This document shows, in pieces, positions 9,212 to 63,086 of a stretch of DNA of 64,000 nt. Origin of the DNA: Candidatus Freyarchaeum deiterrae (GTDB lineage: Archaea; Asgardarchaeota; Jordiarchaeia; Jordiarchaeales; Jordiarchaeaceae); the NCBI GenBank assembly GCA_037305845.1, contig CP147778.1:832001-896000 (forward strand), in the 5' to 3' direction. How positions within the stretch are numbered: the stretch's first letter is position 1; the number at the start of each line of letters is the position of its first letter. A model generated the notes under the pieces. It ran no database searches. It worked only from the letters and a program-made list of their open reading frames with translations, and was not told where the DNA came from. The position numbers and the translations under genes were made by a program.

Positions 9212-9368
9212 CTATTACATCTAAACCAGCACTGACATACTCCCAACCCTGAAGGGTTAGGGGTTCTACACTTCTACTACTGTTGTTAGTGTTAGAAGTG
9301 TTGGACGTGCCACCGCCCAGTTAACGGCTTCCGCACCCCTCTCTCTTCGGGGTGAGCAAGCCCTATTA
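9212..9368 (-). ncRNA. Putative stand-alone TnpB-type omegaRNA (reRNA) scaffold plus about 20-nt flank-derived guide
   Basis: Stems GGCUU/AAGCC, CACCCC/GGGGUG, UGGGCG/CGUCCA, ACACUUCUA/UAGAAGUGU and the RE hairpin; loop UGGCA can pair with terminal UGUCA (pseudoknot); TATA box about 25 nt upstream; ends approximate. Confidence 0.6.
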
Positions 9369-9452
9369 TCCTCTTTTCTCTTTTTTCACTATTTAAACTC
9401 CACGCAATTCATCCCCGTCTTTAAAATAATGGGGCTTTCTTGCTAATCCTCT
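9232..9452 (-). mobile_element. Non-autonomous IS200/IS605-family mini-element (PATE-like, TnpB-type orientation), 221 bp, no ORF
   Basis: Minus strand left end: TTAC|AGAGGATTA-GCAAG-AAAG-CCCC...GGGGATGAATTGC. Right end: GAAC-CCCTAACCCTTCAGGGTTGGGAGTATG-TCAG|. The guide/cleavage pairs AAAG/TTAC and GAAC/TCAG fit the IS608 TnpA pairing rule. Confidence 0.8.
9390..9397 (-). promoter_or_regulatory. TATA box (TTTAAATA) inside the mini-element left end
   Basis: Archaeal TATA consensus positioned to start transcription at the beginning of the structured RNA. Confidence 0.5.
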
Positions 9453-9604
9453 GTAATAATTGAGTTTGAATGGAAGGCGCCCTCTTGATTAGCTGAGTGG
9501 TTTATTACAAGCTTTATATTTGGGAAGTTTATTAATAGTGAACTAGTCTAAAGTATGTTTTTAGATTGGGTTAATTGAAAATTTTCAAATATGCAGGGTG
9601 ATAT

Positions 9605-11797
9605 TTGATGAGATCCGCGGTGGTTCGAGTATCAGAGGCGAAGCCCCGAGATGTAGGACATGGAATTGTTAGGGTTGATCCCCAAGTCGCTGAAAAACTC
9701 AACATAACCACAGGGGATACAGTTGAGATTGTTGGCAAGAAAAGAACCGTGGCGCTGTCTTGGTATGGTTATCCAGAGGATAGAGGGAATCAAATCATAA
9801 GAATTGATGGCGCATCACGAAGGAATGCTGGTGTAGGGATTGATGATAAGGCAAGTATTAGAAGAATCGATGCTCGACCCGCTACCAAGCTGGTTTTGGC
9901 TCCTACTGAAAACCTCAGCTTGACCGAAGGAGAAGAATATTTCAAAAAAATCTTAGAGGGTAGAGCAGTTACTTCCGGTGACTATCTGGAAATACCCGTG
10001 ATGGGTGAAAAGATTCTGCTAGTAGTAGCTTCTTATAAGCCAAAATGTGAAGCGATAATCGTAAACAAGGGAACGGAAATAAAAATCAACCCCAAACCAG
10101 TTAAGGAAATTAAAGATACCAGTGTGCGTAAGGTCTCATACGAGGATATCGGTGGTCTGCATGAGGAGGTTAGGCGAGTGCGTGAAATGATTGAGCTTCC
10201 TCTACGCCACCCTGAGGTATTCGATCGTCTGGGAATCTCTGCGCCCAAGGGGGTTTTGTTGCACGGACCACCAGGAACAGGAAAAACACTTCTCGCGAAA
10301 GCGGTTGCAAACGAAACCGAAGCATACTTTGTCGCCATAAGCGGCCCAGAAATCATGAGTAAATTCTACGGTGAGAGCGAAGGCAGACTGAGGGAAATAT
10401 TCCGAGACGCGGAGAGAAACGCCCCCAGCATAGTCTTTATAGACGAGCTTGATAGCATAGCCCCAAAAAGGGAAGAAGTAACAGGGGAAGTGGAGCGAAG
10501 AGTCGTCGCCCAACTCCTAGCACTAATGGATGGTTTACAATCCCGGGGTGAACTGGTTGTTATAGGTGGCACCAACCGACCTAATGCTCTCGACCCTGCT
10601 CTGAGGCGGGGAGGGCGTTTCGATAGGGAAATCGAATTCGGCATACCCAACAAGCAAGCCCGGTTAGAAATATTACAGATACACACCCGAGGAATGCCGC
10701 TGGCAGACGATGTGGATCTAAAATTTATATCAGAGTACACGCATGGTTTTGTAGGCGCTGACATCGAGGCGCTGTGTAAAGAAGCAGCTATGCTTGCTTT
10801 AAGAAGAGTTCTGCCCGAGATATATTTAGAAACAGATAGTATACCAGCAGAAGTGCTAAACAAGATAGAAGTAAACATGCAAGACTTTACTAATGCTCTC
10901 AGAAACATTGAACCATCCGCCATGAGAGAAGTCCTAGTAGAAGTCCCGAACGTAAAGTGGGAGGAAGTTGGGGGATTGCTGGAAGCAAAACAGCAACTAA
11001 TAGAAACTGTGGAATGGCCCCTCAAATATGGCAAGTTTTTCAACCATATGGGTGCAAAACCTCTGAAGGGAATATTCCTGCACGGCCCACCGGGAACTGG
11101 TAAGACTCTGCTGGTTAAGGCTCTGGCGAACGAGAGTCAGGCGAACTTCATCTCCATTAAGGGTCCGGAGTTTCTTAGCAAGTATGTTGGAGAGAGTGAG
11201 AGAGCGGTTAGAGAGACTTTTAGAAAAGCGAGACAATCAGCTCCCTGCATCGTATTCTTTGACGAGATTGACGCTATCGCTCCGGTTCGCGGTATGGGTT
11301 TCGGCGACTCTCATGTTTCCGAGAGGGTTATAAGCCAGATACTCACCGAAATGGACGGTTTAGAAGAACTCCACAACGTTGTTGTCGTTGCTGCAACCAA
11401 TAGACCGGATATCGTGGATCACGCATTACTGCGACCAGGCAGATTTGACCGCATAGTTTACATTCCTATTCCAGACAAAGAGTCAAGGATGGAGATTTTC
11501 AAAATCCACACTGCTCACAGTCCAATTGACAGAGATATAGACTTGAAAGAATTGGCGGAGAGGACTGATGGCTATACCGGAGCAGATATTTACGCTATCT
11601 GTAACGAGGCTATTATGATTGCAATAAGGGAGTATATAATGAGCAACCAGATAGACGAAAAAACCGAAGACTTCCAGACGTACACAATTAAAAGGAGCCA
11701 CTTCGAAAAAGCTTTGGAGAGAGTTAAACCGCTAACGAAAGGGCAAATAGAAAGATACGAAGAGATAGCCAGAAACTTCGCTGAAGGTTTGGCATAA
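9605..11797 (+). CDS. cdc48: CDC48/VCP family AAA ATPase
   Basis: N-domain plus two AAA modules (GPPGTGKT twice, [31 protein letters not shown]). Confidence 0.95.
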
Positions 11798-11882
11798 AGC
11801 TCTAAAAATTCAGAGACTAAAAATGAGAGAAAGGGCTACACGAATCAGACGAAGTGTTATACCGGTTCTTTAAAATAATGAG

Positions 11883-11921
11883 CAGGGAAGGTTTTTTCCT
11901 TCGCCTGTGATTCTTTTTCTT
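11883..11921. terminator. Hairpin plus T-tract between convergent cdc48 and roadblock genes
   Basis: gaagg-tttttt-ccttc stem followed by ttctttttcttt. Confidence 0.4.
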
Positions 11922-12305
11922 TTACATTTGTTTAAGTACGCCAACTATCTTTTCTCCGGCTCTTTTCATTTCCACTAGTAGAAGCCCGAGATTGGCTCCA
12001 GATTTGGTTATCGCTGATAATACGGCTTCTGATCCTACTCCTCTAAGTATTATGTCACCTCTACTCCCGCTGACTATTACCTTGTCCATTTCTCCTCTTG
12101 CGAGTTCCGTTACAGCTCTGTTTCCTATGTTAAGGAGAGCGGCGCTCATAGCTGCGATTAAGCCCTCGTCTGCACTCTTAGGTAGAGCTGAGGCCATTAC
12201 CAGACCATCTGTCCTCACTATAGCAGAAGATTCTATATCTGGGTCAGCATCTTCCATGCCTTTTAATAGGCCTTCGAGTTCATTTTTCCAACTCTTCGAC
12301 GGCAT
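11922..12305 (-). CDS. Roadblock/LC7 (MglB-like) domain protein
   Basis: SAIVRTDGLVMASALP, IAAMSAALL, ELARGEMDKVIVSG, NLGLLLVEMKRA; ATG 12305 follows an AGGTGA RBS. Confidence 0.9.
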   Translation of the reverse strand: MPSKSWKNELEGLLKGMEDADPDIESSAIVRTDGLVMASALPKSADEGLIAAMSAALLNIGNRAVTELARGEMDKVIVSGSRGDIILRGVGSEAVLSAITKSGANLGLLLVEMKRAGEKIVGVLKQM

Positions 12306-12683
12306 ATTTTTTCTCACCTGTTAGACTTATTTTATTTCCAACATAATTAAAGTTTCCATTTTTGAGGAACATATTATTCTGTTTTTTAGTAAAATCTACT
12401 TATTAAGGTTTATTTTTGCTTAAAATCCCCCCCGAAATGATGTATCAGTTTCTAGGCGCTTGTATGAACTATTCTTTGCGTTTTTCTAATTGAAAATTTT
12501 GAAATAGTGAATATACATACCCCATGTGAGATTCTGTACTTCTAAAAAATTTGGGTAAAGTAATTGAGAAATGTTATATATTTTAGCAGCTTGGTAATCA
12601 CTAGATAAGAGAACTTCTGGAATATTCAATGGTTTTCCGTTGAGAATTTTCTCAAAATACCATTGCTTAAAGAGATGTTATAA

Positions 12684-13112
12684 ATGAGCCGACTCTCAAG
12701 GAGGATTCGTGGGCGGAGTGAATCCAAGGTAAAGAAGATTTTGAAGGTTCGAATTAAGAGTGAGGTTGTGGAGGGTGTTCTGGAGGCTTGTAGAAATGTT
12801 CATCCTAGAGAATTTCTAGGTCTTCTCAGAGCAGAAGAAGGTGTGATTACTGAAATCGTTCTTGCTCCAGCAAGCATTTACGGTAGAGGGGTGGCACAGT
12901 TTCAACCCCACATGCTACCGTTTGACTTCTCGCTTGTAGGAAGCATTCACTCACACCCATCCGGTTCTGGTAGACCCTCTACTCAGGACCTTAACTCTAT
13001 GTTTAATTTCGGTGTAGTACACATTATTGTAACTTTCCCCTACAGCAGCCATCAAGACCTGCACACGTACGACAAAAGGGGAAACCCCATTCAATGCGAA
13101 GTTGTAGAATAA
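12684..13112 (+). CDS. JAB1/MPN/Mov34 (JAMM) metalloprotease
   Basis: HPREFLGLL and HSHPSGSGRPSTQD (E...HxH-x7-S-x2-D). Confidence 0.9.
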   Translation: MSRLSRRIRGRSESKVKKILKVRIKSEVVEGVLEACRNVHPREFLGLLRAEEGVITEIVLAPASIYGRGVAQFQPHMLPFDFSLVGSIHSHPSGSGRPSTQDLNSMFNFGVVHIIVTFPYSSHQDLHTYDKRGNPIQCEVVE

Positions 13113-13257
13113 TCCAATATGGAATCTCCATTCAAGAGGGTTAGATAAAAAAATTAAATATAAAAAGCAGGACAAAGAAAGTGGTATAGATAAAAATAAT
13201 AACACTGTTGTACTAGTATTTTTAGTTTTTAGACGGGTGCTTTTGAGGTGAGAGTTT

Positions 13258-14097
13258 TTGTGCAAATTTTGTTACAAGCACGGAGCCGGTAATAGATGGT
13301 ATCTGAACGAAAGAAACCTTTCCGTGAAATTGGCAAAAGAGCTAGGATACGAACAATGGGAGCTGGATCACTGGAAACTAATCGACAAAGTCTATGGTGA
13401 CGCAACAAAAATGTTAGCGGGCGTACTCAACGACCCCAAAATGCTGGAGCCAACAAAAATGATGCTTGAACAAATGATACAAAAAGACGAAGGCCCACGA
13501 GTTTTCCCAGAGGGTCACCTTGGACAGGTGATTACACTAGAAGAGGCTAAAAAGATTTGTGAAGTATCTGGAGACGTTTACAGAGTTATGTGCCCCTGTC
13601 GCAGGATGAACCGAAACGAGAAAGTGTATACCTGTATGCCGTTAGGATTACACGGTGAGACTGTGGAGGGATACGTAGACCACGCTCCAAAGGGAGTGGA
13701 GAGACTAACCGTTGCGGAAGGACAGGAATTCTTGGATGAATGCGATGAAAAGGGAATGGTTCACACAATAGCGGGAACACCACTTCCAATGGCATTCGCA
13801 ATGTGTAATTGCCAATATCCAGAATGCATCGCCCTAAGACCGAGAATAGATTTTGACATTCACCACTTCCTTAAGGGACACTACGTGGCAAATGTAAACA
13901 TAGACAATTGTACAGGATGCGGAAGCTGTGCGATGCGCTGCCAGTTCGGAGCAATAACTATCCAACCCACACTAGGCAGAGCCCACATCAACCAGTTCAA
14001 GTGCTTCGGGTGCGGAGTATGTAGAGGCGCATGCCCAGTGGGTGCGATATCTCTGCTTCAGAGAGAGGATATTCCAGCATTAAGAGAGGAGTGGTAA
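13258..14097 (+). CDS. 4Fe-4S dicluster-binding protein
   Basis: CPCR, MCNCQYPEC, and C-terminal CTGCGSCAMRCQ and CFGCGVCRGACP. Confidence 0.8.
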   Translation: MCKFCYKHGAGNRWYLNERNLSVKLAKELGYEQWELDHWKLIDKVYGDATKMLAGVLNDPKMLEPTKMMLEQMIQKDEGPRVFPEGHLGQVITLEEAKKICEVSGDVYRVMCPCRRMNRNEKVYTCMPLGLHGETVEGYVDHAPKGVERLTVAEGQEFLDECDEKGMVHTIAGTPLPMAFAMCNCQYPECIALRPRIDFDIHHFLKGHYVANVNIDNCTGCGSCAMRCQFGAITIQPTLGRAHINQFKCFGCGVCRGACPVGAISLLQREDIPALREEW

Positions 14098-14101
14098 ATA
14101 G

Positions 14102-14341
14102 ATGGCAGCCAAAGTTTCTGTCGAGTGGTTTGAAAACAAGTGCCCCAAACCGCAGGATTGCGGAAAATGTTTAGAGGTATGCCCCAGCACGGTTTTCGTC
14201 ATGTATGCAACAGAAAGGGAGCGTTACAAAGTACCAGAGCACTATGTGATTGTACCATCATTCGCAAACTTCTGTGTAACATGCAACAAGTGTACAGACA
14301 TCTGCCCCAACGACGCGATTAAAGTTGAAGTAAAACAATAA
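14102..14341 (+). CDS. 2x[4Fe-4S] ferredoxin
   Basis: CPKPQDCGKCLEVCP and CVTCNKCTDICP. Confidence 0.85.
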   Translation: MAAKVSVEWFENKCPKPQDCGKCLEVCPSTVFVMYATERERYKVPEHYVIVPSFANFCVTCNKCTDICPNDAIKVEVKQ

Positions 14342-14594
14342 GGTGAGGAGACATAAAATAACATTAGGGCGACTTTTTAATGGCCCTTATTTTTTATTTT
14401 TCTTTTTTTCTGTGTTTTTGGTTTTTTATCTTGGGTTTTCCTTTTTGTTTTTCTGGGATATTTTTTAATATTTTTCTTCATTATTATTGGTTGTTTTTGA
14501 ATTTTGAGGAGGGAGAGGCTTGTTACTCATTTATTGGTAGCAACTCTTATATGTTAGGATGGGTGTATTTTCATCGAAATCTAGGTGGATTGAT

Positions 14595-15302
14595 ATGCCC
14601 TCAGAAAATATTCGCACCGCAATAAAGAGTTTGGCGGAAGGAAAATTCATTTTGTTGTTCGACAGGGAAGGCAGAGAAGGAGAAGTAGATCTGGTGAAGC
14701 TTGCAGAGATGGTTAAACCAGAAGATGTTTTCACATTGAGGCGTGATGCTGGTGGCTTAATATGTGTTGCAATGCATCCGGAAATCTGGCACCGCTGGGA
14801 GCTGCCTTTTCTCCATGAGTTGTTTCAATCATGCTATTGTAATTATGGAGTTCTTCAAGCTTTGATTCCCAACGATATTCCGTACGATGAGAAATCCGCT
14901 TTCTCGGTGACCGTTAATCACAGGAAAACATTTACAGGAGTAACCGATAAGGATAGGGCTTTAACTATTAGAGAACTGGGATTGTTGGGAAAGAATACTT
15001 ACTATAGCAAAAGTGACAACAATTGGAAGGAGGAATTGGGTAGAAATTTCCGATCCCCGGGTCATGTGCATCTCTTGTTAGCCACAGATGGTTTGTTGAG
15101 AAAGCGTCAGGGTCATACTGAGCTCACTGTTTCCTTAGCAGAGATGGGGTCATTGAATCCGGTTTTGGTTCTCTGTGAGATGCTCGACGGAAAAACGGGA
15201 AAGGCTCTTTCGGTTAACGATGCAAAAAAGTATGCACAAAAGAATAATCTGGTTTATGTTAGCGGCGTGGAGATAATGGATGAGTATTTAAAGAGGGCTT
15301 AG
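14595..15302 (+). CDS. ribB: 3,4-dihydroxy-2-butanone-4-phosphate synthase
   Basis: DREGREGEVDL, GGLICVA, YDEKSAFS, TGVTDKDRALT, FRSPGHV, RQGHTE, CEMLD; start at ATG 14595 after AGGTGG. Confidence 0.95.
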   Translation: MPSENIRTAIKSLAEGKFILLFDREGREGEVDLVKLAEMVKPEDVFTLRRDAGGLICVAMHPEIWHRWELPFLHELFQSCYCNYGVLQALIPNDIPYDEKSAFSVTVNHRKTFTGVTDKDRALTIRELGLLGKNTYYSKSDNNWKEELGRNFRSPGHVHLLLATDGLLRKRQGHTELTVSLAEMGSLNPVLVLCEMLDGKTGKALSVNDAKKYAQKNNLVYVSGVEIMDEYLKRA

Positions 15303-15303
15303 A

Positions 15304-15777
15304 ATGGCTAAAGTGAACGTGGGCGTTACAGACACAACATTTGCGCGTTACGACATGGCTAAGGTAGCTATTGAGGAGATGGAAGATAACAGCTCAAAGG
15401 TGAACATAATAAGGTACACTGTTCCCGGAGTGAAGGATCTTCCGGTAGCATCGAAAAAGCTGATAGAGGAGTATGGTTGCGAAATAGTTATGGCTATCGG
15501 AATGCCCGGGGCGGAACCCATCGATAAGCTGTGTGCACACGAAGCTGCGCTGGGCATAATAGACGCACAGATCTTAACTAACAAACACGTTATTGAGTGC
15601 TTTGTTTACGAGGATGAAGCAGAAACTCCTGAAGAGTTGGCGTCAGTGTGCGAAGACCGTGCCCGAAAACACGCTAGGAATGTGCTAAGACTTTTGTTCG
15701 ATAAGGAGTGGCTAACTAAAAATGCGGGGCAAGGGTTAAGACAGGGCCGCCAAGATGTGGGGCCTCTAAAACCGTGA
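15304..15777 (+). CDS. ribC: Archaeal (pentameric) riboflavin synthase
   Basis: VTDTTFARYDM, RYTVPGVKDLPVASKKLIEEYGC, AGQGLRQG. Confidence 0.95.
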   Translation: MAKVNVGVTDTTFARYDMAKVAIEEMEDNSSKVNIIRYTVPGVKDLPVASKKLIEEYGCEIVMAIGMPGAEPIDKLCAHEAALGIIDAQILTNKHVIECFVYEDEAETPEELASVCEDRARKHARNVLRLLFDKEWLTKNAGQGLRQGRQDVGPLKP

Positions 15778-15791
15778 TGTGAGGTATTGTT

Positions 15792-16208
15792 ATGGAAGAA
15801 AAAATAAGATTGGGTATTGTTGTTTCAGAATTTAATTACGATATAACGTATATGATGCTTCAGAGAGCGCTAGACCATGTCGAGTTTCTGGGTGCCACTG
15901 TTGAAAAAGTACTGAAAGTACCCGGAGCTTTCGATATGCCTCTCGCTATTAAGAAGCTCCTCGGAATGGACGAAATTGACGCGGTGGTCACCTTAGGTAC
16001 CGTCCTTAAGGGAGACACAGACCACGATCAGGTGGTAGCTCAGCATGCCGCGCGAAAAATGATGGATCTAGCTTTAGAGTACGGAAAGCCGGTTACGTTA
16101 GGTGTATCCGGACCAGGAGTGACTAGGGCTGAAGCAACGGAGAGAATTGATGAGTATGCGAAGAGGTCCGTTGAATCTGCCGTGAAGATGGTTAGGCGTC
16201 TTAAATAG
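15792..16208 (+). CDS. ribH: 6,7-dimethyl-8-ribityllumazine synthase
   Basis: [37 protein letters not shown]. Confidence 0.95.
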
Positions 16209-16247
16209 AATATAATCGTTGTAGTAGAGTAGTAGAGGCGGAGTAGT

Positions 16248-17012
16248 ATGATTCAATTGACTTTGATACAGCTTGACAACTACGGTCCTTGGACTGAACT
16301 GTTGGGTACTGATCGTGAGCCTGATTTGCAGATATTGCAAGCTGAAATCTACGCGGATCTTCAGAGAATGTTTGCCTTAAAGAGGGGTTTGGTTTTCTTT
16401 AATCGTTTTGATAACATGATTGCTGTGTCCAATGGTATATCTGTTAAGGATCATGAATTGATGCTGAGAAGTGTGTCTAGGAGATATCCGGTTTCTGTTA
16501 GTATGGGTATAGGTTCCGCCGAATCGCCCTATGAAGCCCAGGTGTTAGCCACGAGGGTTCTTCAAGATGTTGGTAGTGCGCATTCCCAAACTAGGAAGGA
16601 AGTCCTTGTACAAGCGTCTAATGATGACAGCGGGCCGGATTACGTTCAGATCGCGCACATAGACGTGAATAAGTTTACAAGGGATGTTGTCGACCGTGAA
16701 TCGGCTTATCAGAGTTCTATTATGATTTATTCCGCCACTTCTATTCTCATGAGAATGTTTGCGAATAAGGGTGCCATTCTATTTTTTGTCAGTGGGGACA
16801 ATTTTATGGCTATTTGTAATGGTTTGAAGAAGAATGACTTCAAGGAGATATTCGACAAGTTTGAGGCAAGCATAAATCTGAAGCTTAAAGCAGGAGTTGG
16901 CTTTGGTAAAAACGCTTTAGATGCCTTATCGATAGCGAATGAGGGTCTCTCTCTGATTAGGGAAAAGAAGACTAATGAGGCAATCGTTATTAGCGAGGAA
17001 GAGAAGCTTTAA
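16248..17012 (+). CDS. gch3: GTP cyclohydrolase III (ArfA)
   Basis: IQLDNYGPWT, REPDLQILQA, RFDNMIA, IAHIDVN, GDNFM. Confidence 0.9.
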   Translation: MIQLTLIQLDNYGPWTELLGTDREPDLQILQAEIYADLQRMFALKRGLVFFNRFDNMIAVSNGISVKDHELMLRSVSRRYPVSVSMGIGSAESPYEAQVLATRVLQDVGSAHSQTRKEVLVQASNDDSGPDYVQIAHIDVNKFTRDVVDRESAYQSSIMIYSATSILMRMFANKGAILFFVSGDNFMAICNGLKKNDFKEIFDKFEASINLKLKAGVGFGKNALDALSIANEGLSLIREKKTNEAIVISEEEKL

Positions 17013-17015
17013 GCC

Positions 17016-18176
17016 ATGTCTTACACCATTTACTCGGACTTCTGTCTGGTGGGAAGAGAACTAGAACTACTGGAAGAGGTTTACATAACAATCTCGAGTG
17101 AAGGGTATTTCGAAAGTATTTCAGATAAAGCCCCGAGTTCCCGCAACTATTCGGTTTTTGAGGACTGCCTCGTACTTCCTACTTTTATAAATGCTCATAC
17201 ACATGTTGGAGACTCTTTTGCCAAGGAGGAGGGCTACAATTACTCCATAGAGGAAGTGGTTGAATCCCTCCGTGGATTAAAACATAGACTCTTGGCGGAT
17301 GCTTCCGATGAGGAGCTGATGTATGGAATCCATGATTCCTGCTTGGAGATGTTATTCTCGGGTACATCTACCTTCGTTGATTTTAGAGAGGGTGGATTGA
17401 AAGGGATAAACCTCATGAACGAGGCAACAAAAGATTTACCCATTACGGTTATAAAACTGGGTCGACCTACCCAAGAAACATCTCTGGGAGAGCTGATTCC
17501 AGTTGTCGACGGAATCGGGTTAAGTTCCACAAATGGTTACACAGATAAGGAATTAAAACAGATTTCAAGAAAATGCAAGGAGAGCGGAAAAATCGTCGCG
17601 GTTCACGCTTCGGAAACAGAGACGGAGAGAAAAATAGCTTGCGAAAAATATGGATTTTCAGACATTAAGAGAGCCATAACTGTTCTAGACGCTGATGTCC
17701 TAGTCCACCTGACTCATGCGGAAGAGGAAGATATAAGGTTATTAAATGGTAGAAGAGTGGTTTGTTGCCCTCGTGCAAACTCTTACTTCGGTGTGGGTTT
17801 CCCTCCGGTGCGTGAACTAGTAGAGGCGGGAATGAATGTTTGTCTGGGAACCGATAATGTTATGGCTAACTCTTTAGACCTTTTCAGGGAAATGGAATTC
17901 TTGGGGAAAACACTGAGGGGAATATATGGTAAAAATGCGCTGCACTCCAAGAAAATTATCGAAATGGTTACAGTTAATCCCTCCGATGCGTTTAATTTAC
18001 AGTCGGGATGGATAGGCGAGGGAAGAAACGCAGACTTCATGGTTATAGATCTGAACGCTCCCAATATTAGACCAGTCCACAACATTTATCACTCGGTGGT
18101 TCACAGAGCAAAGTCAGAAAATGTGCAACTTGTTTATATTAAGGGTAAAAAGGTGTACGAAAAAGGGAGCATATAA
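17016..18176 (+). CDS. Amidohydrolase-superfamily metallo-deaminase inside the riboflavin operon
   Basis: NAHTHVGD, HASET, VHLTH, CPRAN, LGTDN motifs. Confidence 0.8.
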   Translation: MSYTIYSDFCLVGRELELLEEVYITISSEGYFESISDKAPSSRNYSVFEDCLVLPTFINAHTHVGDSFAKEEGYNYSIEEVVESLRGLKHRLLADASDEELMYGIHDSCLEMLFSGTSTFVDFREGGLKGINLMNEATKDLPITVIKLGRPTQETSLGELIPVVDGIGLSSTNGYTDKELKQISRKCKESGKIVAVHASETETERKIACEKYGFSDIKRAITVLDADVLVHLTHAEEEDIRLLNGRRVVCCPRANSYFGVGFPPVRELVEAGMNVCLGTDNVMANSLDLFREMEFLGKTLRGIYGKNALHSKKIIEMVTVNPSDAFNLQSGWIGEGRNADFMVIDLNAPNIRPVHNIYHSVVHRAKSENVQLVYIKGKKVYEKGSI

Positions 18177-18190
18177 AAGAGGGCTTCAAT

Positions 18191-51321: not shown

Positions 51322-51326
51322 AATAA

Positions 51327-54278: not shown

Positions 54279-54492
54279 CCAAGCGGAATCTTTCCTCTTT
54301 TTTCTATTTTTTAATTTATTTTTTTGTTTCTTGTTTAATAACGAGTATCTCAGAAAGGAAATAGTTAGTAAATCGATGACTGTTTTTTAGTTTAAATACC
54401 CGACTTCCCCAAGTTACCAAAATAGATTATCAAATCAGCGTAGAGTGACCAAAAGCGCTGAGGATAGTGACTCAAAAAGCCTCGATAAGGTT

Positions 54493-54831: not shown

Positions 54832-54860
54832 AACTTCAATATTTCTAATGGTCTTTTTTA
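54788..54860 (-). repeat. Left arm of ~75-bp inverted repeat flanking the AbiE pair
   Basis: Reverse complement is nearly identical to 56618-56692. Confidence 0.75.
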
Positions 54861-54865
54861 AAGAC

Positions 54866-55795
54866 TTATACTAATTCCTCTGTAACCCTTTTCAAGAACA
54901 CGCTGAAGTCTCTGAGGAACTTGTAGAATTCCTTTTCATCTATATCTGACAGTAGCAGCTCTCGTTCTTCTCCCCAGGTAAAGGCATTTTCTGAAGTGAT
55001 TATATCTTTCTTCGCTTCCAGATTCATCCTGTACTTCTCGTAAAGGTTGAGTATAAATTTGGTCTTGTCAATTATGATTTCGTGCAGGTCTTCCAGATTG
55101 ACACCGAACTTGCTGCAGATCAGGTAAACGTCCAGAAAGTCGCGTGCTTTAATTCCCTTCCTTGTCAGAATCGCTCTTACCTTTTCGCTCAGAATCTCCC
55201 GAATATCGTAAACATCAAAGCTAATTCCATGCGCGTATTCTTTGTACTCTGGAAACAGCACGTCGAGCTCCTCCTGTTTTATCTCGCTTAGTAGGCTTTT
55301 CAGTTCTACTTTCTGAGGGGCAAAGTATAGTTCTTCAACAAAATTTATCTGGATTTTTATGAAGCTTAATCGCTCAAGTGTTTCTGATTGGTACCAGATT
55401 TTAAGCGTGCAGGTTTTGTCGCTTCCTCCAAGCTCAACATAGTTTCTGTTGTGCTTCTCGCACTTGAAGTCAAAGCCTCGCTTCAAGACTATCTCCTCTA
55501 AAACAGCACCCACCTCATCTATGACTTTTGACAGATAACTCCGAATCTCTTTCTGAGACTTGCCCTCAAAGACCTCTTGATTCTTCCATGTGAAGTCTGT
55601 GTCCTCTGAGAAGCGGAAGTAACCGAGGTAGCCTTTAATCAGGCAAGTTCCGCCTTTGAAAATGAAGTTTTCTGAAAAGAACTTGTTCAGGGAAAGGTCA
55701 AGGAGCAGCTGGTGGAGGATTAAATCCTTCTCAATCAAATCTGTTCTCTGGATTCCCTGAAGTCTGCCGACTTCGTTCACAAAATCTTTCCTCAT
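54866..55795 (-). CDS. AbiEii/AbiGii nucleotidyltransferase toxin (type IV TA)
   Basis: LIEKD, FKGGTCL, RFSEDTDF, EKVRAIL.R, ARDFLD. Confidence 0.9.
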   Translation of the reverse strand: MRKDFVNEVGRLQGIQRTDLIEKDLILHQLLLDLSLNKFFSENFIFKGGTCLIKGYLGYFRFSEDTDFTWKNQEVFEGKSQKEIRSYLSKVIDEVGAVLEEIVLKRGFDFKCEKHNRNYVELGGSDKTCTLKIWYQSETLERLSFIKIQINFVEELYFAPQKVELKSLLSEIKQEELDVLFPEYKEYAHGISFDVYDIREILSEKVRAILTRKGIKARDFLDVYLICSKFGVNLEDLHEIIIDKTKFILNLYEKYRMNLEAKKDIITSENAFTWGEERELLLSDIDEKEFYKFLRDFSVFLKRVTEELV

Positions 55796-56436
55796 TTTAC
55801 CACCTCTCTAACAATTTCCCTAACAGTCTTTGGATACTTCTCAGAATACTTCTTGATTTTTGCTCTTGAAACATTCTTCGCCCAATCTTCAACATCCAAA
55901 ATTATCTTATTTCTCGGCACTCCGTTGTACCTCCACACGTAGATGAAGTCAAGAATAGTTTTCTCAACATCAGAGTACCTCAAGCGGTCCTCCACCGTTA
56001 CACCGAATTCCAACAACTCGGGCGCAAGCTTAACGAATTTGAACTTGTAGCCCGCAATGTTCACCGGCTTAGCGCGAAAAATCCGGTCATTAACAACGTG
56101 GTCAACGGCAAAATGTTCGTGAGTCACGTTATTCAGCTTCAAGGCGGTGTATAAGCCGAAATACCAGTTCTTAACATTTTTTAGCTCCATTCCTTTAGCA
56201 ACCAGCTCCAGATGACTGTATTTGGTTTTACCCAGCTCAATCTCATCCAAAGCTTTAACATAAAAGATTCCTCGAAAAATCCGTACTAGGTAACCTCTCG
56301 AAATAAAGTGTCTAATGGCTATCTCATAGTCAAGATTCATTGAGCCGCAGTACCGCTTGAGTTCCGTAGAGGTCACAAACTCCTTTCCTTCCATGCGAAG
56401 CTTCCTGAGCAAAAGGTTCGTTTTCATACATATCAC
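55792..56436 (-). CDS. AbiEi-like antitoxin / transcriptional regulator
   Basis: N-terminal wHTH (LVRIFRGIFY), YFGLYTAL, SDVEKTILD; 4-nt overlap with the toxin; start may be ATG 56427. Confidence 0.8.
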   Translation of the reverse strand: MICMKTNLLLRKLRMEGKEFVTSTELKRYCGSMNLDYEIAIRHFISRGYLVRIFRGIFYVKALDEIELGKTKYSHLELVAKGMELKNVKNWYFGLYTALKLNNVTHEHFAVDHVVNDRIFRAKPVNIAGYKFKFVKLAPELLEFGVTVEDRLRYSDVEKTILDFIYVWRYNGVPRNKIILDVEDWAKNVSRAKIKKYSEKYPKTVREIVREVVK

Positions 56437-56457
56437 AAAGTCACAGAAATGTGATAT
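56430..56457. promoter_or_regulatory. Candidate AbiEi autoregulatory operator
   Basis: 8-bp inverted repeat atatcaca-N12-tgtgatat at the abiEi start, next to an AT-rich TATA-like tract. Confidence 0.45.
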
Positions 56458-56617
56458 TATAATATATATCAGAAAGTAATATAAATTCTTATTCCCAACC
56501 AGAAAATTCGCTTACCAGCATCCTTGGCATAGGTGTTCAATCACTCAATAGATAACGACCATCACCCAATTACCATCATCGCTAAAAAGGATAATATCAT
56601 AATAGAACACTGGGACA

Positions 56618-56692
56618 TAAAAAAGGAACCATTAGAAACGTTGAAGCTATGAAATATGACACATTGTCCATCAAGAGGGAGAATGCCGCTAT
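56618..56692 (+). repeat. Right arm of the inverted repeat
   Basis: taaaaaaggaaccattagaaacgttgaagctatgaaatatgacacattgtccatcaagagggagaatgccgctat. Confidence 0.75.
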
Positions 56693-56717
56693 AGAAACTT
56701 TTTTTAAGAACCATTAG
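56649..56717 (+). pseudogene. Truncated third copy (5' fragment) of the DUF6054-like gene
   Basis: MKYDTLSIKRENAAIETFFKNH* versus MKIDTMSIKRENATI and MKYDVLSIERKNAEI. Confidence 0.6.
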
Positions 56718-56730
56718 GAATTCAAAAATT

Positions 56731-57060
56731 ATGAAATACGATGTATTATCAATTGAGAGGAAGAATGCCGAAATTCTGATCAATGCTTTCAAGCAGAAGT
56801 TTCAACCATCATTTGAATACACTTCAAAATCAGGAAATGTTAAAATTCTGGTTTTAGAAAAATTCGGTTTAAACGGTGCTTATATGGCCGCGACCGTGTT
56901 ATTCGATTCCAAAGATAATGACTCATGCATTATAAACATAGTTGTTACTGGTGGAAAAAAGGGCAGCGGTGGGAGCTTCGGGAGCCAAGAAAAAATGTTA
57001 AATGAAATCAAGCGCTTTTTACAGAAATCTGGTTGTGAAAAATCATGGAAAGAAGTTTGA
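56731..57060 (+). CDS. Small hypothetical protein (DUF6054-like), paralog of 54493-54831
   Basis: FEYTSKSGNVKILVLEKF, IVVTGG. Confidence 0.65.
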   Translation: MKYDVLSIERKNAEILINAFKQKFQPSFEYTSKSGNVKILVLEKFGLNGAYMAATVLFDSKDNDSCIINIVVTGGKKGSGGSFGSQEKMLNEIKRFLQKSGCEKSWKEV

Positions 57061-57082
57061 AATCCGAATATTAATTAAAAAT

Positions 57083-57376
57083 TCAGCCTCCGGCAATAGC
57101 CGTAGTCAAATCTACTCTAGAGTTCTCTCTTAGCACGACCTTGTCATAACCACCCAGAGCCATAGGGTCCTCGCCGTCAACAACAACCAAAACCAAGGGT
57201 TTGAGTTCTTTCTCCTTCTTATCCCACAACTTATCGTACAAGTCATCCCTCTTATGCTTCTCAACAATCAGATTCATCAAATCTATGAACACAGAACCCT
57301 CCGGCAAAACATACTCCTCCGTAGAAGTTCCAGCGAACTCCTTAATCACACCATAGTACTTGACAAAAACTCTCAT
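57083..57376 (-). CDS. MoaD/ThiS (SAMP-like) ubiquitin-fold protein
   Basis: MRVFVKYYG...C-terminal IAGG; near AOR. Confidence 0.85.
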   Translation of the reverse strand: MRVFVKYYGVIKEFAGTSTEEYVLPEGSVFIDLMNLIVEKHKRDDLYDKLWDKKEKELKPLVLVVVDGEDPMALGGYDKVVLRENSRVDLTTAIAGG

Positions 57377-57492
57377 TCTGCATCGCTGCCTCCTTAAAAT
57401 CTTTAACAAACCTCAAGACTGGCATAAATTTGATACTGTATGTATTGACAATTCATCAAGATAACTTCATAGTACCAAATGCTACTCGTTTT

Positions 57493-58233
57493 TTATATGA
57501 CCTTCAAAGAAGCAATATAATAATATCCCGCTGGTGCATTATTCTGTGCCGTTTCATCGCTTATGAATTCAATGTTTTTACCAAAATGTTTTGCAGCTAT
57601 CCACAAGTGGCAAAGAGCTATACCAATACTAATCGCGTTCATTTTTTTAAGCATAATTGACTTAACACAATATGCATGAAGTAAGTCTCTACTACCCGTA
57701 AAAAACCAAGGCTGACTGTTCGTTCCGGATGGGGCAAGGCGAGCAGGTTCCAACAACTCATCCATACCATTAATGTTACTTATCTGTCCAAGAGGTTTTC
57801 TCTTAAATTCCGAAACACGCTCTCTATGCAATGGTTCTTTAGGCTTCCCAAAAGCTAATACAATGACAAATTCAAGCTTTGAATTGCTCAATATTTCTTT
57901 GGTCGGTTTTTGCAGTCCTCGCCAACAGGCACCGATACCGTTAGCTGAAAGGAACAAATCAATCTGCTGCAGCATAAAGCCTACATTTTCCAAATAACCG
58001 TCTTTAGTTTCGGAAAATGCAACAATATAATGGGGTGCTGGTGATCCCAACAAACCTTTAACATCTTTTTGTGATACAATTTTCATTTCGGTTTTGATGT
58101 TACCATACATCGGGCTTAAGGTGCTCATATAAGTTGAAATCTCCGCCAGAGTATCCTCATCAAGCGGAGTCAAATCATATTTTCTGATCGATTTGCGCTT
58201 AAATATTGTTTCGTAAAGGTCTGTACTTTCCAT
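57493..58233 (-). CDS. Nitroreductase family protein (two-domain)
   Basis: IFKRKSIRKY, ENVGFMLQQ, ARLAPSGTNSQPW, GIALCH; strong AGGAGGAGG RBS. Confidence 0.88.
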   Translation of the reverse strand: MESTDLYETIFKRKSIRKYDLTPLDEDTLAEISTYMSTLSPMYGNIKTEMKIVSQKDVKGLLGSPAPHYIVAFSETKDGYLENVGFMLQQIDLFLSANGIGACWRGLQKPTKEILSNSKLEFVIVLAFGKPKEPLHRERVSEFKRKPLGQISNINGMDELLEPARLAPSGTNSQPWFFTGSRDLLHAYCVKSIMLKKMNAISIGIALCHLWIAAKHFGKNIEFISDETAQNNAPAGYYYIASLKVI

Positions 58234-58430
58234 TGTTTTACCTCCTCCTTAGATATTATTATCTTTAGGCAATTATTAGAGCAGAATTTAATCGTTCATT
58301 TTTTCTTAATAAGACTTTTCCTTATATGTTTCTGTCGGTGAATGGTTATTCTCTAAACAAACAAAACCAGCAAAAAACAATAAAAAAATAAACGAAATAA
58401 AAGAAAAAAGAGAGGGTTTTCAGTTTAAAC

Positions 58431-60302
58431 TTATTCGCCCCATAGATCCTTAGCCACATCGGGCAAACCAAGCAGTATCAATCTATCCTTCTCTGGAATA
58501 GCGTCCTCAGTCCATCCACGAAAAGCATAGTACTGTTCCATCATCTCTTTCATCGGCGGAACTTTGCCCTTCTGACTGCCCTCTTTGGTGGGCGTCAAAA
58601 GCCTTGGCGGAAGCTTATTGTCTTTATCACGCATTCCTACACGTACGTTATAGGCCCACTTAAGATTGTACAATTTATCTGCAGTAATGTTCAAGTAGAG
58701 CTCGTCAGTCGCCCAACCGCAACAATTCTTAAAGGCTTCAATAAAAGTCGTTATTCCAAAGGGCATAGCTCCGAAAAAGCATAGTACTGATGATCCTAGT
58801 AATGCGAATAGGTCTTGTACTATTGCGGTGATTTCGCCCTTTCTTGCGGGGTCGAATCTTCCTGTTCTTTTCAGCAATCCTGCGGAGGCGTTTAGTATTC
58901 CCATGTCTGATATGCAGGCGTATCCGGTTACGTGGCATGCTCCTCTGTGTGAGGTGGCGTATTCTACTCCCATTGAGTAGAATGCTCGGGGGTCGTGTCC
59001 GGGGGCTTCGAGTCCTTTGACTGTTGTGAGGAATTCGTGTCCTTTACCCAGTTTGTCAGCTGCTGCTTGTGAGCCGTCACCTAGGAGTACTCCTGCTTTT
59101 CCTTCTCTCTTGACTATCTTCTCTGTTATCTCAAGCATTGCTTCAGCGTCTCCCCATTTTAGGGCTATTCCGTCGAGGTCATTCTTTTTTATTATTCCCT
59201 TCTCGAGTGCTTCAGTCGCCCAGGCGATTGTTGACCCTGTGGATATGGTGTCTACTCCATAGTCGTTGCAGAGCTGGTTCGCCATAGATATTGCTTTAAG
59301 GTCGTCTATGAGTAGCATGGAGCCGAATGTTACACAGGTTTCATATTCTGGTCCCGGGCCTTCGAACTCGAAGGGTTCTTTAATTTCTATCCATCTGCCG
59401 CATCTTATGGGGCAGCCGAAGCAGCCAGTTCCTCTCTTAAGTATGGTATTAGCCATTTCCCCTCCGCCAATCTTGGTTGTTCCTTCCCATTCTCCCAGTT
59501 GCCAGTTTTTGATCGGAATGTCTCCCATGGGGGCCATGGAGTCCATCATATATTCGGTTCCGTATTTTTGCATTCCTGATACTAGCATGGGTCCGACAGA
59601 GCTGGGTGACCCCTTCGGAATAATCAATTGGGTGAGTCTTTTGATTTGTTCTTTTACTGCTCCAGAGTCTGCCCACTGTATTTCTCCGGTTCCTCTCACG
59701 GCTATGGCTTTGAAGTTTTTGCTTCCCATCACTGCCCCGGAGCCGCCTCTTCCTAAGGCTCGGGCTTCATCGTTTAGAATGTTAGCTAGTTTTGATTGCT
59801 TCTCGCCGGCTGGTCCTATGCATAGGACTCTGGCTTTTTTCTCTCCGGTTTCTTCTTGGATCATTTCTTGGGTTTTGAAGGTTCCTTGTCCCCATATGCC
59901 AGAGGCGTCTCTGAGTTCTTTTTGAGCGTCTTTTATCCAGAGGTATACTGGTTTGTCGGATTTTCCTTCGATGATTATTCCGTCGTATCCTGCTCTTTTC
60001 ATTTCTATAGCGAAGTAGCCGCCGGAGCTTGCTTCTCCGTAGCCGTGCGAGATTGGTGATTTGAATACTACGGTGAATCTTGAGCTGCAGGGTAAGCCGC
60101 CTGAAAGTGGTCCTGTGAAGAAGTAGAGTTTGTTTCTCTCGTCGAGTTCATCAATGTCTGGGGGGACTTCGTCGTAGAGTAGTCGGGCTCCGAATCCGCT
60201 TCCTCCGAGCCAGTTTTTCGCCCATTGCTCATCTAATGGTACTTCTTTTATTGTTCCCTCTGAGAGGTTTACTCTTAGGTATTTACCCATCCATCCGAAC
60301 AT
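58431..60302 (-). CDS. aor: Aldehyde:ferredoxin oxidoreductase (tungsten AOR family)
   Basis: GRGGSGAVMGSK, CFGCPIRC, EYET, DTISTG, VKGLE.PGHDPR, RGACH. Confidence 0.9.
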   Translation of the reverse strand: MFGWMGKYLRVNLSEGTIKEVPLDEQWAKNWLGGSGFGARLLYDEVPPDIDELDERNKLYFFTGPLSGGLPCSSRFTVVFKSPISHGYGEASSGGYFAIEMKRAGYDGIIIEGKSDKPVYLWIKDAQKELRDASGIWGQGTFKTQEMIQEETGEKKARVLCIGPAGEKQSKLANILNDEARALGRGGSGAVMGSKNFKAIAVRGTGEIQWADSGAVKEQIKRLTQLIIPKGSPSSVGPMLVSGMQKYGTEYMMDSMAPMGDIPIKNWQLGEWEGTTKIGGGEMANTILKRGTGCFGCPIRCGRWIEIKEPFEFEGPGPEYETCVTFGSMLLIDDLKAISMANQLCNDYGVDTISTGSTIAWATEALEKGIIKKNDLDGIALKWGDAEAMLEITEKIVKREGKAGVLLGDGSQAAADKLGKGHEFLTTVKGLEAPGHDPRAFYSMGVEYATSHRGACHVTGYACISDMGILNASAGLLKRTGRFDPARKGEITAIVQDLFALLGSSVLCFFGAMPFGITTFIEAFKNCCGWATDELYLNITADKLYNLKWAYNVRVGMRDKDNKLPPRLLTPTKEGSQKGKVPPMKEMMEQYYAFRGWTEDAIPEKDRLILLGLPDVAKDLWGE

Positions 60303-60309
60303 CTCTCTT

Positions 60310-61632
60310 TCACCTCACTTTTGTTATGTCGGGTTCCTCCACGCGTTTAAATCCTTCTTTAGGAACTGGGTCTATCTTCTTGTAGAACCTTCTTAGAACA
60401 AGTCCCGCGGGTTGCTGGTGCAGGAAGGTTGGTTTTGCTGATTCCATGGGTTCAATGTCTTTGAGCTCGTAATCCTTACTACCTAAGCCGATTTCTTGTC
60501 CTACGTTACACTGTATGTCCTCGCTTACACCCAAGAATGAACCTGAAACAGAAAACTTTGGTCTCCCTTTAGTTGCATCTTTCTCCTCGGCTACAGAACC
60601 AGGCATTGCTATTGATTTAACAGCCATGTCTAAGCAAGCTCGGTCTATAGCAACGGGATCTTTACTGGCGAAGATTCCCATGTTGGGAATGATGGCGCGG
60701 TCGGAATAAGGAATACAGTCACACCAAGGTGTGCTGTCTAATCCAAAGTTTAGGAATCCCACTTTTCCTGGCTCAAATGTGTTCATACAGGCTTTTGCCG
60801 AATCAGCCACTGCGACGCAAGTAGCTTCAAACCAGTCTATTAATTTCAAGTTCGCGAAAACTCCGCAATCCAGAGTCGTGAACATGTGACATGTGCAACC
60901 ATTGCAGAGTTCCTTAATGAATTCAATAGGCCCCTTTTCCGGAACGACCAGCGCCCCTTCAGGACAGATAGAATTACACGTCTCCCACTTCGAGCATTCC
61001 CTGCCGCCACAATAACCGGGTATGTATTCCATCGTTTGCATGCCTAGGACTGGATGAGCTCCCATGTGAAGGTTGTATTTCCCTCTCTTAGATGCACACC
61101 CCACACCAACGTTTTTAATGGCTCCACCAAAGACTCCCCATGGGTGTCCCTTGAAGTGGCTTAGGACTATCATGGAGTCAGCGCATGCTACTGCTGTTGC
61201 TACGTATTGTTCTTTGAGTATGTATCCTTCGGGTAGGTCTATTCTGACATCGTCGGTTCCTAGGAATCCGTCTCCGACTATCACTGGGCATCCTACTGTT
61301 CCGGAGTTGAATCCGTTTCTTTCAGCGGTCATGTAGAGGTCCCAGCCGTTTGTTCGGAAGCAGAAGGGTGCGTATGGTAGTGTGGTTGTTTCGACTACGA
61401 ATGGTCTCCCTCCGAGTTCTTTTACTTTGTCTACTATTGCTCTTACGTAAACTGGTCTGAGATAGCCGGTGTTGTTCCATTCTCCCAAGTGGGCTTTTAT
61501 TACTACATAGTCATCTTTGTCTATGCACTCGTTTAGTTTGGCTTCGTTGAATAGATGTAGTGCTTTTGCAACTAGGCTGGTAGAAGTTCCATAAGCTCTA
61601 TCATCCATATGCAATACTTCAGATTTTGCCAT
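60310..61632 (-). CDS. DUF362 family Fe-S protein
   Basis: KAHLGE, SHFKGH..GVFGGAIKNVGVGCAS, WCDC, ASKDPVAIDRAC. Confidence 0.85.
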   Translation of the reverse strand: MAKSEVLHMDDRAYGTSTSLVAKALHLFNEAKLNECIDKDDYVVIKAHLGEWNNTGYLRPVYVRAIVDKVKELGGRPFVVETTTLPYAPFCFRTNGWDLYMTAERNGFNSGTVGCPVIVGDGFLGTDDVRIDLPEGYILKEQYVATAVACADSMIVLSHFKGHPWGVFGGAIKNVGVGCASKRGKYNLHMGAHPVLGMQTMEYIPGYCGGRECSKWETCNSICPEGALVVPEKGPIEFIKELCNGCTCHMFTTLDCGVFANLKLIDWFEATCVAVADSAKACMNTFEPGKVGFLNFGLDSTPWCDCIPYSDRAIIPNMGIFASKDPVAIDRACLDMAVKSIAMPGSVAEEKDATKGRPKFSVSGSFLGVSEDIQCNVGQEIGLGSKDYELKDIEPMESAKPTFLHQQPAGLVLRRFYKKIDPVPKEGFKRVEEPDITKVR

Positions 61633-61842
61633 CTTTTACTCTCCCTTTCATAAATATTTTCAAAATTCGTCATTTTTTATAAATTTGTTATGTATTGACT
61701 TGATTTTTCTAATTCTTAAATTTTATTCTGCAATTGTCGTATTTTTTTGTCGGGTTGAAGATAAAAGTAGATTAGTGTTGTGTTTCCAATATTATATTAT
61801 ACTTTTTCTCAGTTTTTGAAACAGAACGATTTATTTTCGAGT

Positions 61843-62733
61843 CTACATGCACCTGTAGAGTTGGATGAGGGGTGTCACATCGTTTAGTGCCGCTTCAAGG
61901 CTTATGGAGGAGTATTGGTCTATTTGATATTGTTCATCATCATCTTTCTTTATTACGTTGTGTTTTTCTAGGAGTTCTAACGCTTCTGCTGCGCTTTCGA
62001 AAAGGTTGGAGTTTTTTGTTTGGTTTATTGTTTGATGTTGTAGTATTTGGAGTGCTGTTACTTCTAGTTTCTCTTGGCGTATTTCTTTGAGAGCTAGTAT
62101 TATGTTTTTGGGGGGTGGGGTTCCTGCTTTCCAAATGAACGTTTCTTTTCCTAGCCCTTGTAGACTGATTATTTTGTTGTCGTGAAGTTCTTTTATGAGC
62201 AGCTTGGGGTTATCGGTGAAGTTTTGGGTGAGCTTAATGATATCTTCCGTGTTTGCCGGGTTAGGGGAGTGAAGTATTGCATCGAATACTTTTCTAAGTT
62301 CGCTCCAGTCTTTGTGGTTTCCTTGGAGTAGAAAACCGCTGTATTTCAGAACCGAGATTTTTCCGTTTTTCACTATGATGGGGTTCAGTTCATTCTCGAC
62401 TTTTGTGAGAAGATCCTTGAAAACTCCATTTCCGTTTGGAGTTACTCCGGTTATCTCTGTTACCAGTTCGGGAAGTTCAGCGGGTATGTTTAGAAGCCTA
62501 GCGGCTCTGGCAGTGATTGATTCTATTCCATTTGAGAAGAAAACGTCTATGAGTTTCCTCACATGGTAGGTGGGAAGGATGGATTTTTTTTCATAGAATT
62601 TTTTTATGCACTGGTCAATGAATTTTCTTCGGAGTGTTTCCCCTATTTTTAGGGAGGGAAAAAGTGTGGTGAATGCTACCGCATCCCTGTTTGCTCGAAT
62701 GAAGCTCAGTGAACCAGATTGTTCAGGGTGCAA
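61843..62733 (-). CDS. Hypothetical protein (possible C-terminal winged helix), operonic with the nurA-like gene
   Basis: 296-aa ORF with TTG start after GGGGGT; ALELLEKHNVIKKDDDEQYQI resembles a wHTH end. Confidence 0.6.
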   Translation of the reverse strand: MHPEQSGSLSFIRANRDAVAFTTLFPSLKIGETLRRKFIDQCIKKFYEKKSILPTYHVRKLIDVFFSNGIESITARAARLLNIPAELPELVTEITGVTPNGNGVFKDLLTKVENELNPIIVKNGKISVLKYSGFLLQGNHKDWSELRKVFDAILHSPNPANTEDIIKLTQNFTDNPKLLIKELHDNKIISLQGLGKETFIWKAGTPPPKNIILALKEIRQEKLEVTALQILQHQTINQTKNSNLFESAAEALELLEKHNVIKKDDDEQYQIDQYSSISLEAALNDVTPLIQLYRCM

Positions 62734-62771
62734 AGTTAAACCCCCTTATAATTTCTTATACTCCAAATCAC

Positions 62772-63086
62772 CTCTACTCCGCAAGGAAGCCCACTAACTT
62801 TAGTTAAGGCTCGAGAAATTGCGGATTTATGGGGTGGGGCTTTCATTGTCTATAAGGTCTGGTGACCCACAAACCAGTTTAACCCCTTCGACAAGCCGAG
62901 CCGGACCTTAGCTACCCCTAGGCGCCACGTATTGAGTAGTTCTGCCGAAGGGAAGCGGGACTAGACCGCATATCCCGCCGTTCTCGTAGCCCGAGGTGGG
63001 CAATCGTTTGAAACTACAATGTCCGGTTAAGATTTGCGTTTTTACAATCATTACAAGCCCGCACGATTTGGCCGTAGGTTCTTGAT
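62772..63086 (+). mobile_element. Non-autonomous IS200/IS605-family element (IscB/IsrB-type arrangement), 315 bp, inserted in the nurA-like 3' end
   Basis: Left end: TCAC|CTCTACTCC-GCAAG-GAAG-CCC...AATTGC. Right end: CAAG-CCCGCACG...CGTAGGTTCT-TGAT|. Removal restores the reading frame of the host gene. Confidence 0.75.

Follow-up and report, generated by a model that had tools for sequence, protein, structure and literature searches.

A one-sided copy of the target in the left ends of some mini-elements related to two IS200/IS605-type elements of the Asgard archaeon Candidatus Freyarchaeum deiterrae

Elements of the IS200/IS605 group are defined as making no target duplication. Two mini-elements of this group lie in a 64,000-nucleotide stretch (the window) of the genome of Candidatus Freyarchaeum deiterrae (assembly GCA_037305845.1, contig CP147778.1, positions 832,001 to 896,000), and their ends were compared with those of related elements in other genomes and in phage contigs. 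Neither contains a protein gene; element 1 (9232..9452, minus strand) is a 221-bp element of the TnpB type, of the kind known as a palindrome-associated transposable element (PATE), and element 2 (62772..63086, plus strand) is a 315-bp element of the IsrB type, both consisting of little more than element ends and an RNA of the OMEGA kind, the name standing for obligate mobile element-guided activity. The guide code of such elements and the sharing of ends between unlike cargoes are already established. What is new here is a one-sided copy of the target within the left end of IS605-group elements, where the short linker between the target and the left-end core has in some copies given way to the 6-10 bases with which the right flank of the same element begins.

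In IS608, base 1 of the guide pairs with base 2 of the cleavage site, base 2 with base 1 and base 4 with base 4. The elements of F. deiterrae share with IS608 of Helicobacter pylori the left pair AAAG/TTAC, this pairing rule, which is consistent with the published work, and the base triple after the hairpin (PMC3201880); IS608, however, is autonomous and has the right-end pair GAAT/TCAA, whereas the right ends in F. deiterrae are GAAC/TCAG or CAAG/TGAT. The ISGst family of Geobacillus stearothermophilus likewise has ends common to TnpB, IscB and OMEGA-RNA-only elements; there the guides covary with the target-adjacent motif (TAM) and the transposon-encoded motif (TEM), the spacing is flexible, one TnpA excises all three kinds of element, IscB-type elements are oriented with the upstream gene and insertion creates no target duplication (Meers et al., 10.1101/2023.03.14.532601). 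The F. deiterrae case departs from ISGst in that IsrB forms the second class, the elements reside in an Asgard archaeon, no tnpA is left and a minority of related copies carry the one-sided target copy. As far as the accessible part of the report by Kapitonov et al. (PMC4810608) goes, the ISC1/ISC2 and IS605B elements of bacteria and Methanosarcina also combine opposite-oriented IscB1 (now IsrB) and TnpB elements with common termini, are mobilised in trans and use GTGA/ATGA target sites; in that part they are reported without target duplication, and neither IsrB-type copies free of protein genes nor Asgard hosts are dealt with. The arrangement of shared termini served by TnpA in trans is therefore already published, and the F. 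deiterrae case adds only a host lineage to it. A paper on the mobile elements of the F. deiterrae genome, which is complete in one contig of 3,576,204 bp (PMC11291895), contains no reference to IS605, TnpB or IscB in its main text (PMC11529989).

Two further comparisons concern the nucleases. DtIsrB of Desulfovirgula thermocuniculi (PDB 8DMB, PMC9581776) resembles the F. deiterrae IsrB in having no HNH domain, in its catalytic motifs and in its NTGA TAM, a likeness drawn from sequence alone. Restorative homing by TnpB and IscB (PMC8612924; Meers et al., 10.1101/2023.03.14.532601; PMC13565253) involves the same right-flank-side break and repair from a filled copy as are considered below, but it is described as restoring the element; no left-end linker overwritten with a one-sided copy of the target was found in the literature searched, most subscription papers lying outside that search. 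A 2026 review (PMC13565253) does not count IsrB among the nucleases for which homing has been shown.

Both left ends in the window have the layout proposed in the first-pass annotation, and all four of its guide/site pairs can be read from the sequence of the two elements, three of them exact and one with a G-T wobble. Exact matches to GCAAGRAAGCCC occur only twice in the window, at 9432-9443 (minus strand) and 62781-62792 (plus strand), and both elements have subterminal hairpins at each end without terminal inverted repeats. The proposals that one left-end family carries two OMEGA RNA classes in opposite orientations, and that the host is an Asgard archaeon, also held up; the linker length of 9 nt needs amending, being 9 nt in some F. 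deiterrae copies, 13 nt in others and 8-12 nt elsewhere, with the remainder of the layout as described.

The left-end linker of element 2 (62772..62780, plus strand) agrees at 8 of its 9 bases with the target at the empty sites of congeners and at 6 of 9 with its own right flank, and over all TCAY sites of the genome such scores have chances of 0.0002 and 0.013, respectively. From these matches the linker is probably an old 9-nt copy of the target, present on one side only. The discovery case, L092, is an IsrB-like element from a different Asgard genome. Its linker repeats exactly the 9-10 bases at the start of its right flank, whilst three sister elements carry a different, family-wide linker and the empty ortholog holds a single copy of the sequence. 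Among 94 deduplicated elements of mixed origin for which both ends were available, 4 have linkers that agree with their own flank over 7-10 nt, where 0.15 would be expected for matches of at least 5 nt. A second set was anchored independently on a motif inside the RNA of one family of TnpB-type mini-elements from a single Asgard genus, and comprised 56 elements with readable ends; 4 of these, about one in fifteen, match for 8-10 nt (0.07 expected) and 7 match for at least 3 nt (0.94 expected), two of the overwrite cases being common to both sets. Phage contigs contributed 22 elements, three with matches of at least 3 nt (0.33 expected), one of which extends to 6 nt. Distinct cases of at least 6 nt are L092, L524 and L590 (10 nt), L495 and L503 (8 nt), L433 (7 nt) and L701 (6 nt), to which element 2 can be added if scored against the ancestral target, and about 4-7% of related copies bear copies of 7-10 nt. 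Target-site duplications, which the first-pass annotation had regarded as evidence against its proposal, thus do occur, but in a minority of copies, on one side only and with the guide code intact. A TnpB-type mini-element family (L493-L670) has approximately 52 copies in the genome G047 and 41 in G062, with size classes near 205, 315 and 340 bp, and about 16 IscB/IsrB genes were counted in G047 and 26 in G038.

Matches of this kind could arise with no overwriting at all if TnpA preferred targets resembling the linker of the donor, the window case then being a chance match. IS608 TnpA has a preference at the +1 base and, in the accessible part of the relevant study, shows extended pairing when engineered (PMC5934647), and some of the short matches do involve family-typical linkers (L240, L434). 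The long matches, however, are found in singleton linkers that depart from the family; none of the 11 copies with the commonest linker matches its flank for 3 nt or more, and right flanks are no closer to the consensus linker than expected (2.60 against 2.70 matches), so that we regard such a preference as a very improbable explanation. Linkers that match the flank differ from those of their sisters, and linkers in general are hypervariable, with 39 types among the 56 anchored elements.

The genomic context of the copies bears on a second, more technical, possibility, that reads from an empty allele were placed so as to run a few bases into the left end, altering the consensus during assembly or polishing. 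All of the genomes concerned are metagenome assemblies of mixed populations, and one near-complete assembly may have been polished. Yet cases occur in four assemblies, fragmented ones included, and in one phage contig, the right ends of the same copies are not affected likewise, and the hypervariability of the linkers exists regardless. Polishing could not, moreover, have made the linker of element 2, which fits the allele of the congeners better than its own flank, or that of L634, in which the linker holds a diverged copy of the flank. Empty orthologs with a single copy were found for L092, L590, L495 and L503, and the L495 site is occupied in two separate assemblies, each with a linker that starts with the flank allele of its own genome. 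An artefact appears rather unlikely, although somewhat less so than a preference of TnpA for particular targets.

Copying was seen at the left end only. In the 56 anchored elements the tail of the right end is almost fixed and never holds 5 or more bases of the left flank, with the limit that the search left only the last 6 nt free to vary. A duplication test independent of the right end gave 2 observed against 1.1 expected, and 0 against 0.3. No duplication was seen in the seven GTDB elements with both ends, and no usable element was gained from scanning viral sequences for the right-end pattern of IscB/IsrB. The idea that the duplication is specific to IsrB, its length fitting a nick at 8-11 nt, was rejected, as TnpB-type copies have it too.

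Strand transfer by TnpA is conservative, so that a duplicated stretch would call for the synthesis of DNA and for the joining of an empty allele to a filled one. We consider the copies most likely to be scars of restorative homing triggered by the nuclease, a reading to which we give roughly even weight. A Y1 TnpA, acting in trans formerly or from outside, would by the established mechanism have bound the hairpins, and the DNA guide would have paired with the cleavage tetramer to allow single-strand excision and insertion, each element having kept its OMEGA RNA only. These RNAs are presumed to be expressed and active in trans, in which case either of the two TnpB genes of the genome (for element 1) or the one intact IsrB (for element 2) could cut the empty site. 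The cut would fall on the right-flank side of the TAM, at 8-11 nt from it for IsrB (PMC9581776) and at 15-21 nt for TnpB (PMC8612924). The TAM-side end would then keep a short tail of target opposite the linker of the donor, whereas the other end would be fully homologous; if left untrimmed, the tail might rejoin the copied element at 1-5 nt of in-register homology, as is present in most cases, to leave a copy in the left end alone. Daughter copies would inherit the new linker, which would explain the hypervariability of linkers. Taken as a whole, the account of non-autonomous IS200/IS605 mini-elements moved by TnpA in trans, with retained OMEGA RNAs and linkers overwritten during restorative homing, is the best explanation we have and seems to us somewhat better than evenly supported.

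Several observations weigh against homing as the source of the copies. The longest copies observed measure 10 nt, although TnpB cuts at 15-21 nt and longer copies would be detectable, and the length limit may therefore come from the folded left end and not from the cut. The copies end at the GCAAG boundary whatever the cargo, as repair of a heteroduplex without any nuclease would also give. In element 2, three of the nine linker bases disagree with the element's own flank, and the last bases of the linker coincide with the family consensus. In addition, the counts are small and come from related copies, with two cases common to both sets and L092 as the discovery case, all of them read from assemblies.

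The same features suit a route without an RNA-guided cut, in which excision or insertion by TnpA on one strand sets a filled strand against an empty one. The unstructured linker would mispair with the target, the folded core would be looped out, and bases of the target would enter the linker through mismatch or gap repair, as far as the GCAA/TTGC stem. The left-end core does fold from GCAA to TTGC, and the longest copies stop at the GCAAG boundary, at 8-10 nt, in TnpB-type and IsrB-type cargo alike. Mispairing does not clearly account for the lack of similar events at the right end, although these might be concealed by the binding of TnpA or by selection acting on the RNA, and the IscB cases need only 3-4 replaced bases, a hint that length depends on cargo. 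We regard it as the most serious of the alternatives, albeit an unlikely one. If homing is nonetheless responsible, then homing by TnpB, IscB and the nickase IsrB would leave a scar of 3-10 nt that serves as a countable record of homing and a source of linker hypervariability, and element 2 and L092 would be the first genomic sign that nicks by IsrB drive homing; for this wider proposal our confidence falls a little short of even.

The guide code itself extends well beyond the window. Two collection-wide scans, of GTDB genomes and of viral contigs, gave 227 distinct left ends among the matches listed (the counts that follow refer to these), and in 164 of them the tetramer predicted from the guide lies 8-12 nt upstream, whereas shuffled guides gave a mean of 34.9 and a maximum of 54. 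The claim that guide and flanking tetramer are correlated beyond chance is thus upheld; related copies inflate the count, but seven pair classes nonetheless agree, namely GAAA/TCAT (52), AAAT/TTAA (42), AAAA/TTAT (27), GAAG/TCAC (23), AAAG/TTAC (12), GAAT/TCAA (5) and AAAC/TTAG (3). The base after the hairpin tracks guide base 1 in 160 of the 164 ends, as would be expected from the base triple of IS608 (PMC3201880). Hosts include Firmicutes, Proteobacteria, cyanobacteria, Bathyarchaeota, Thermoplasmata, Methanobacteriota and others as well as viral contigs, and amongst Asgard genomes the motif is patchy (26 of 400); a left end specific to Asgard archaea was accordingly rejected. One tnpB element (L049, G003:C43) has the GAAG/TCAC left end typical of IsrB elements together with a CAAG/TGAC right end, which indicates that cargo class and guide class are not tied.

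It had been suggested that a single TnpA might serve both elements. No Y1 tnpA was detected in the complete F. deiterrae genome, either with the PF01797 hidden Markov model at E values up to 10 or by tblastn with nine TnpA frames from relatives, so that any TnpA shared by the two must have acted in the past or from outside. A Y1 tnpA is present in four of five congeners, in one of them decayed, and a tnpA element of a congener (L013) has the same TTAC/AAAG left end. The F. deiterrae elements are orphans today, a state that fits the divergence of the copies and the decayed hairpin of element 2; both are probably now immobile, capable at most of homing. The only transposase beside a tnpB, at 2.62 Mb, was rejected as a Y1 enzyme as it looks like an IS607 serine recombinase and has different ends; at this place (2,622,000-2,626,300) a left-end remnant of the element 1 family lies approximately 2.7 kb away. 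Three other tnpB-like families (459588, 1217578, 1345939 and 2615104; 2253075 and 2502073; 3154973 and 151896) are 68-93% identical within each family, have neither the left end studied here nor a transposase nearby, and are possibly domesticated or moved by another route.

Element 1 lies on the minus strand, adjoining the TTAC target tetramer (9453..9456) that forms the left cleavage site and TAM outside the element and precedes every family copy in the genome. Its 9-nt linker (9444..9452) bears no resemblance to its own right flank, and no target-site duplication was found. The left-end core (9404..9443) consists of GCAAG (9439-9443), the guide AAAG (9435-9438), a hairpin and GATGAATTGC, ending in GAATTGC (9404-9410), with GCAA paired with TTGC. 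A TATA-like box within the left end, TTTAAATA (9390..9397), is kept across the family and is presumed on that ground to be a promoter of tnpB and the OMEGA RNA. The RNA scaffold region runs to the right-end hairpin (9232..9370, the 5' limit being approximate), and the right end comprises the guide GAAC (9263-9266) and TCAG (9232-9235). The RNA region is 81% identical to the 3' end of a full tnpB element at 3.248 Mb and has a weak HgcC match (E 0.033); with an RNA that overlaps the 3' end of tnpB, a guide in its 3' flank and a TAM identical to the left cleavage site, it agrees with what defines OMEGA RNAs of TnpB.

BLAST and motif scans recovered, besides element 1, about 11 mini copies with the same ends, 200-230 bp in length and 72-83% identical. 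Two full-length tnpB elements, at 2.435 and 3.249 Mb, encode proteins that are 92% identical, and two remnants of the left end were recovered as well. The guide is AAAG, lost in one copy, intact right ends are TCAG, and one group of copies has linkers of 9 nt, another linkers of 13 nt. Clustered copies occur at 274872-277679 and 3054057-3055772 of the genome and include two pairs with identical left flanks, which points to local duplication; in the pair at 3.05 Mb the right end is gone. At 283173-283234 and 485699-485748, short stretches match the scaffold of the TnpB RNA but have no element ends. An empty site for element 1 in congeners gave only a weak colinear match (27/37, E 0.12). The congener G002 has, between fmdE and cdc48, a gene resembling GMP synthase (L056:1930-3100), two further congeners also have approximately 1.2 kb at this place, and the gene is absent at 9093-9604 of the window, where element 1 sits; its nearest match elsewhere in the F. 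deiterrae genome is 42% identical.

Element 2 follows a TCAC target (62768..62771, plus strand), which is GTGA on the RNA strand and fits the NTGA TAM of DtIsrB. Its left-end core (62781..62822) comprises GCAAG (62781-62785), the guide GAAG (62786-62789), a partly decayed hairpin and AATTGC (62817-62822), and its right end (63054..63086) the guide CAAG (63054-63057), a hairpin and TGAT (63083-63086). The IsrB OMEGA RNA scaffold (62845..63086, minus strand) reads from the right end inwards, with a guide drawn from the upstream transcript of a nurA-like gene (63051..63995, minus strand; PF09376, E 1e-7). The element was inserted 12 codons before the stop of this gene, and now supplies its last 11 codons and stop; the RNA lies sense to the gene, as the orientation bias described by Meers et al. 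(10.1101/2023.03.14.532601) predicts. As a mini-element it is single-copy, its only relative in the genome being the non-coding part (70% identical) of a 1,288-bp isrB element at 2.160 Mb, which encodes the single RRXRR protein of the genome (353 amino acids; 2160301-2161359). The protein has the RRXRR/PLMP start and a split RuvC with the catalytic motifs kept; as it lacks HNH and matches PDB 8DMB (E 2e-72) far more closely than IscB (E 5e-14), its sequence identifies it as IsrB, and IscB was rejected as the partner of element 2.

In five congeners both IsrB-type sites are empty and colinear with the predicted joints, which fixes the boundaries as TCAC...TGAT for element 2 and TCAT...TGAT for the full isrB element; by sequence only, the RNA-strand TAMs are GTGA and ATGA, both NTGA. 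Moving the boundary of element 2 by 9 nt to the right, although preferred by flank alignment alone, was rejected as the family-conserved TGAY terminus would be lost. The TGAT end, taken initially for one wobble, is indeed present, but it is not a lone deviation: it is shared with the full isrB element, whereas the other related IsrB/IscB elements examined end in TGAC, and judging from these ends the wobble is fixed in the F. deiterrae lineage. The RNA of element 2 aligns with nine isrB-linked RNAs, with compensatory change at 34 of 61 predicted pairs, and as a structured RNA of approximately 250-300 nt reading inward from the right end with a guide in its 5' flank it corresponds to an IsrB OMEGA RNA. 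Rfam gave no gathering-level match for the RNAs of either window element, no self-target of either guide elsewhere in the genome was better than 2 mismatches in 12 nt, and a search for IsrB in plasmids found none. The full isrB element (L001:929-950, genome approximately 2,160,300) is inserted 4 nt into a gene for a 148-amino-acid protein; its left end reads CCATAA instead of the CCGCAA of relatives, which supplies an ATG in frame and thereby rescues the gene, and CCATAA also begins its right flank. Its guide has decayed to TAAG.

A relevance of these elements to the ancestry of eukaryotic RNA-guided nucleases had also been proposed. Fanzors are thought to stem from several captures of TnpB, with Fanzor2 from IS607 (PMC10530073). 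The near homologs of the F. deiterrae IsrB include proteins from Hydrothermarchaeota, Alkanophaga, Deltaproteobacteria and Heimdallarchaeota, and with close homologs in unrelated archaea and bacteria and a left end that is widespread, the proposal is not supported. The consequences of the one-sided copies lie instead within the family itself. Where 4-7% of copies carry a target duplication, the calling of boundaries and TAMs from genome sequences is affected. If the copies are indeed marks of homing, the natural rate at which elements are restored by OMEGA nucleases, and whether the nickase IsrB restores any, would become open to counting in public genomes and to testing in an existing E. coli assay.

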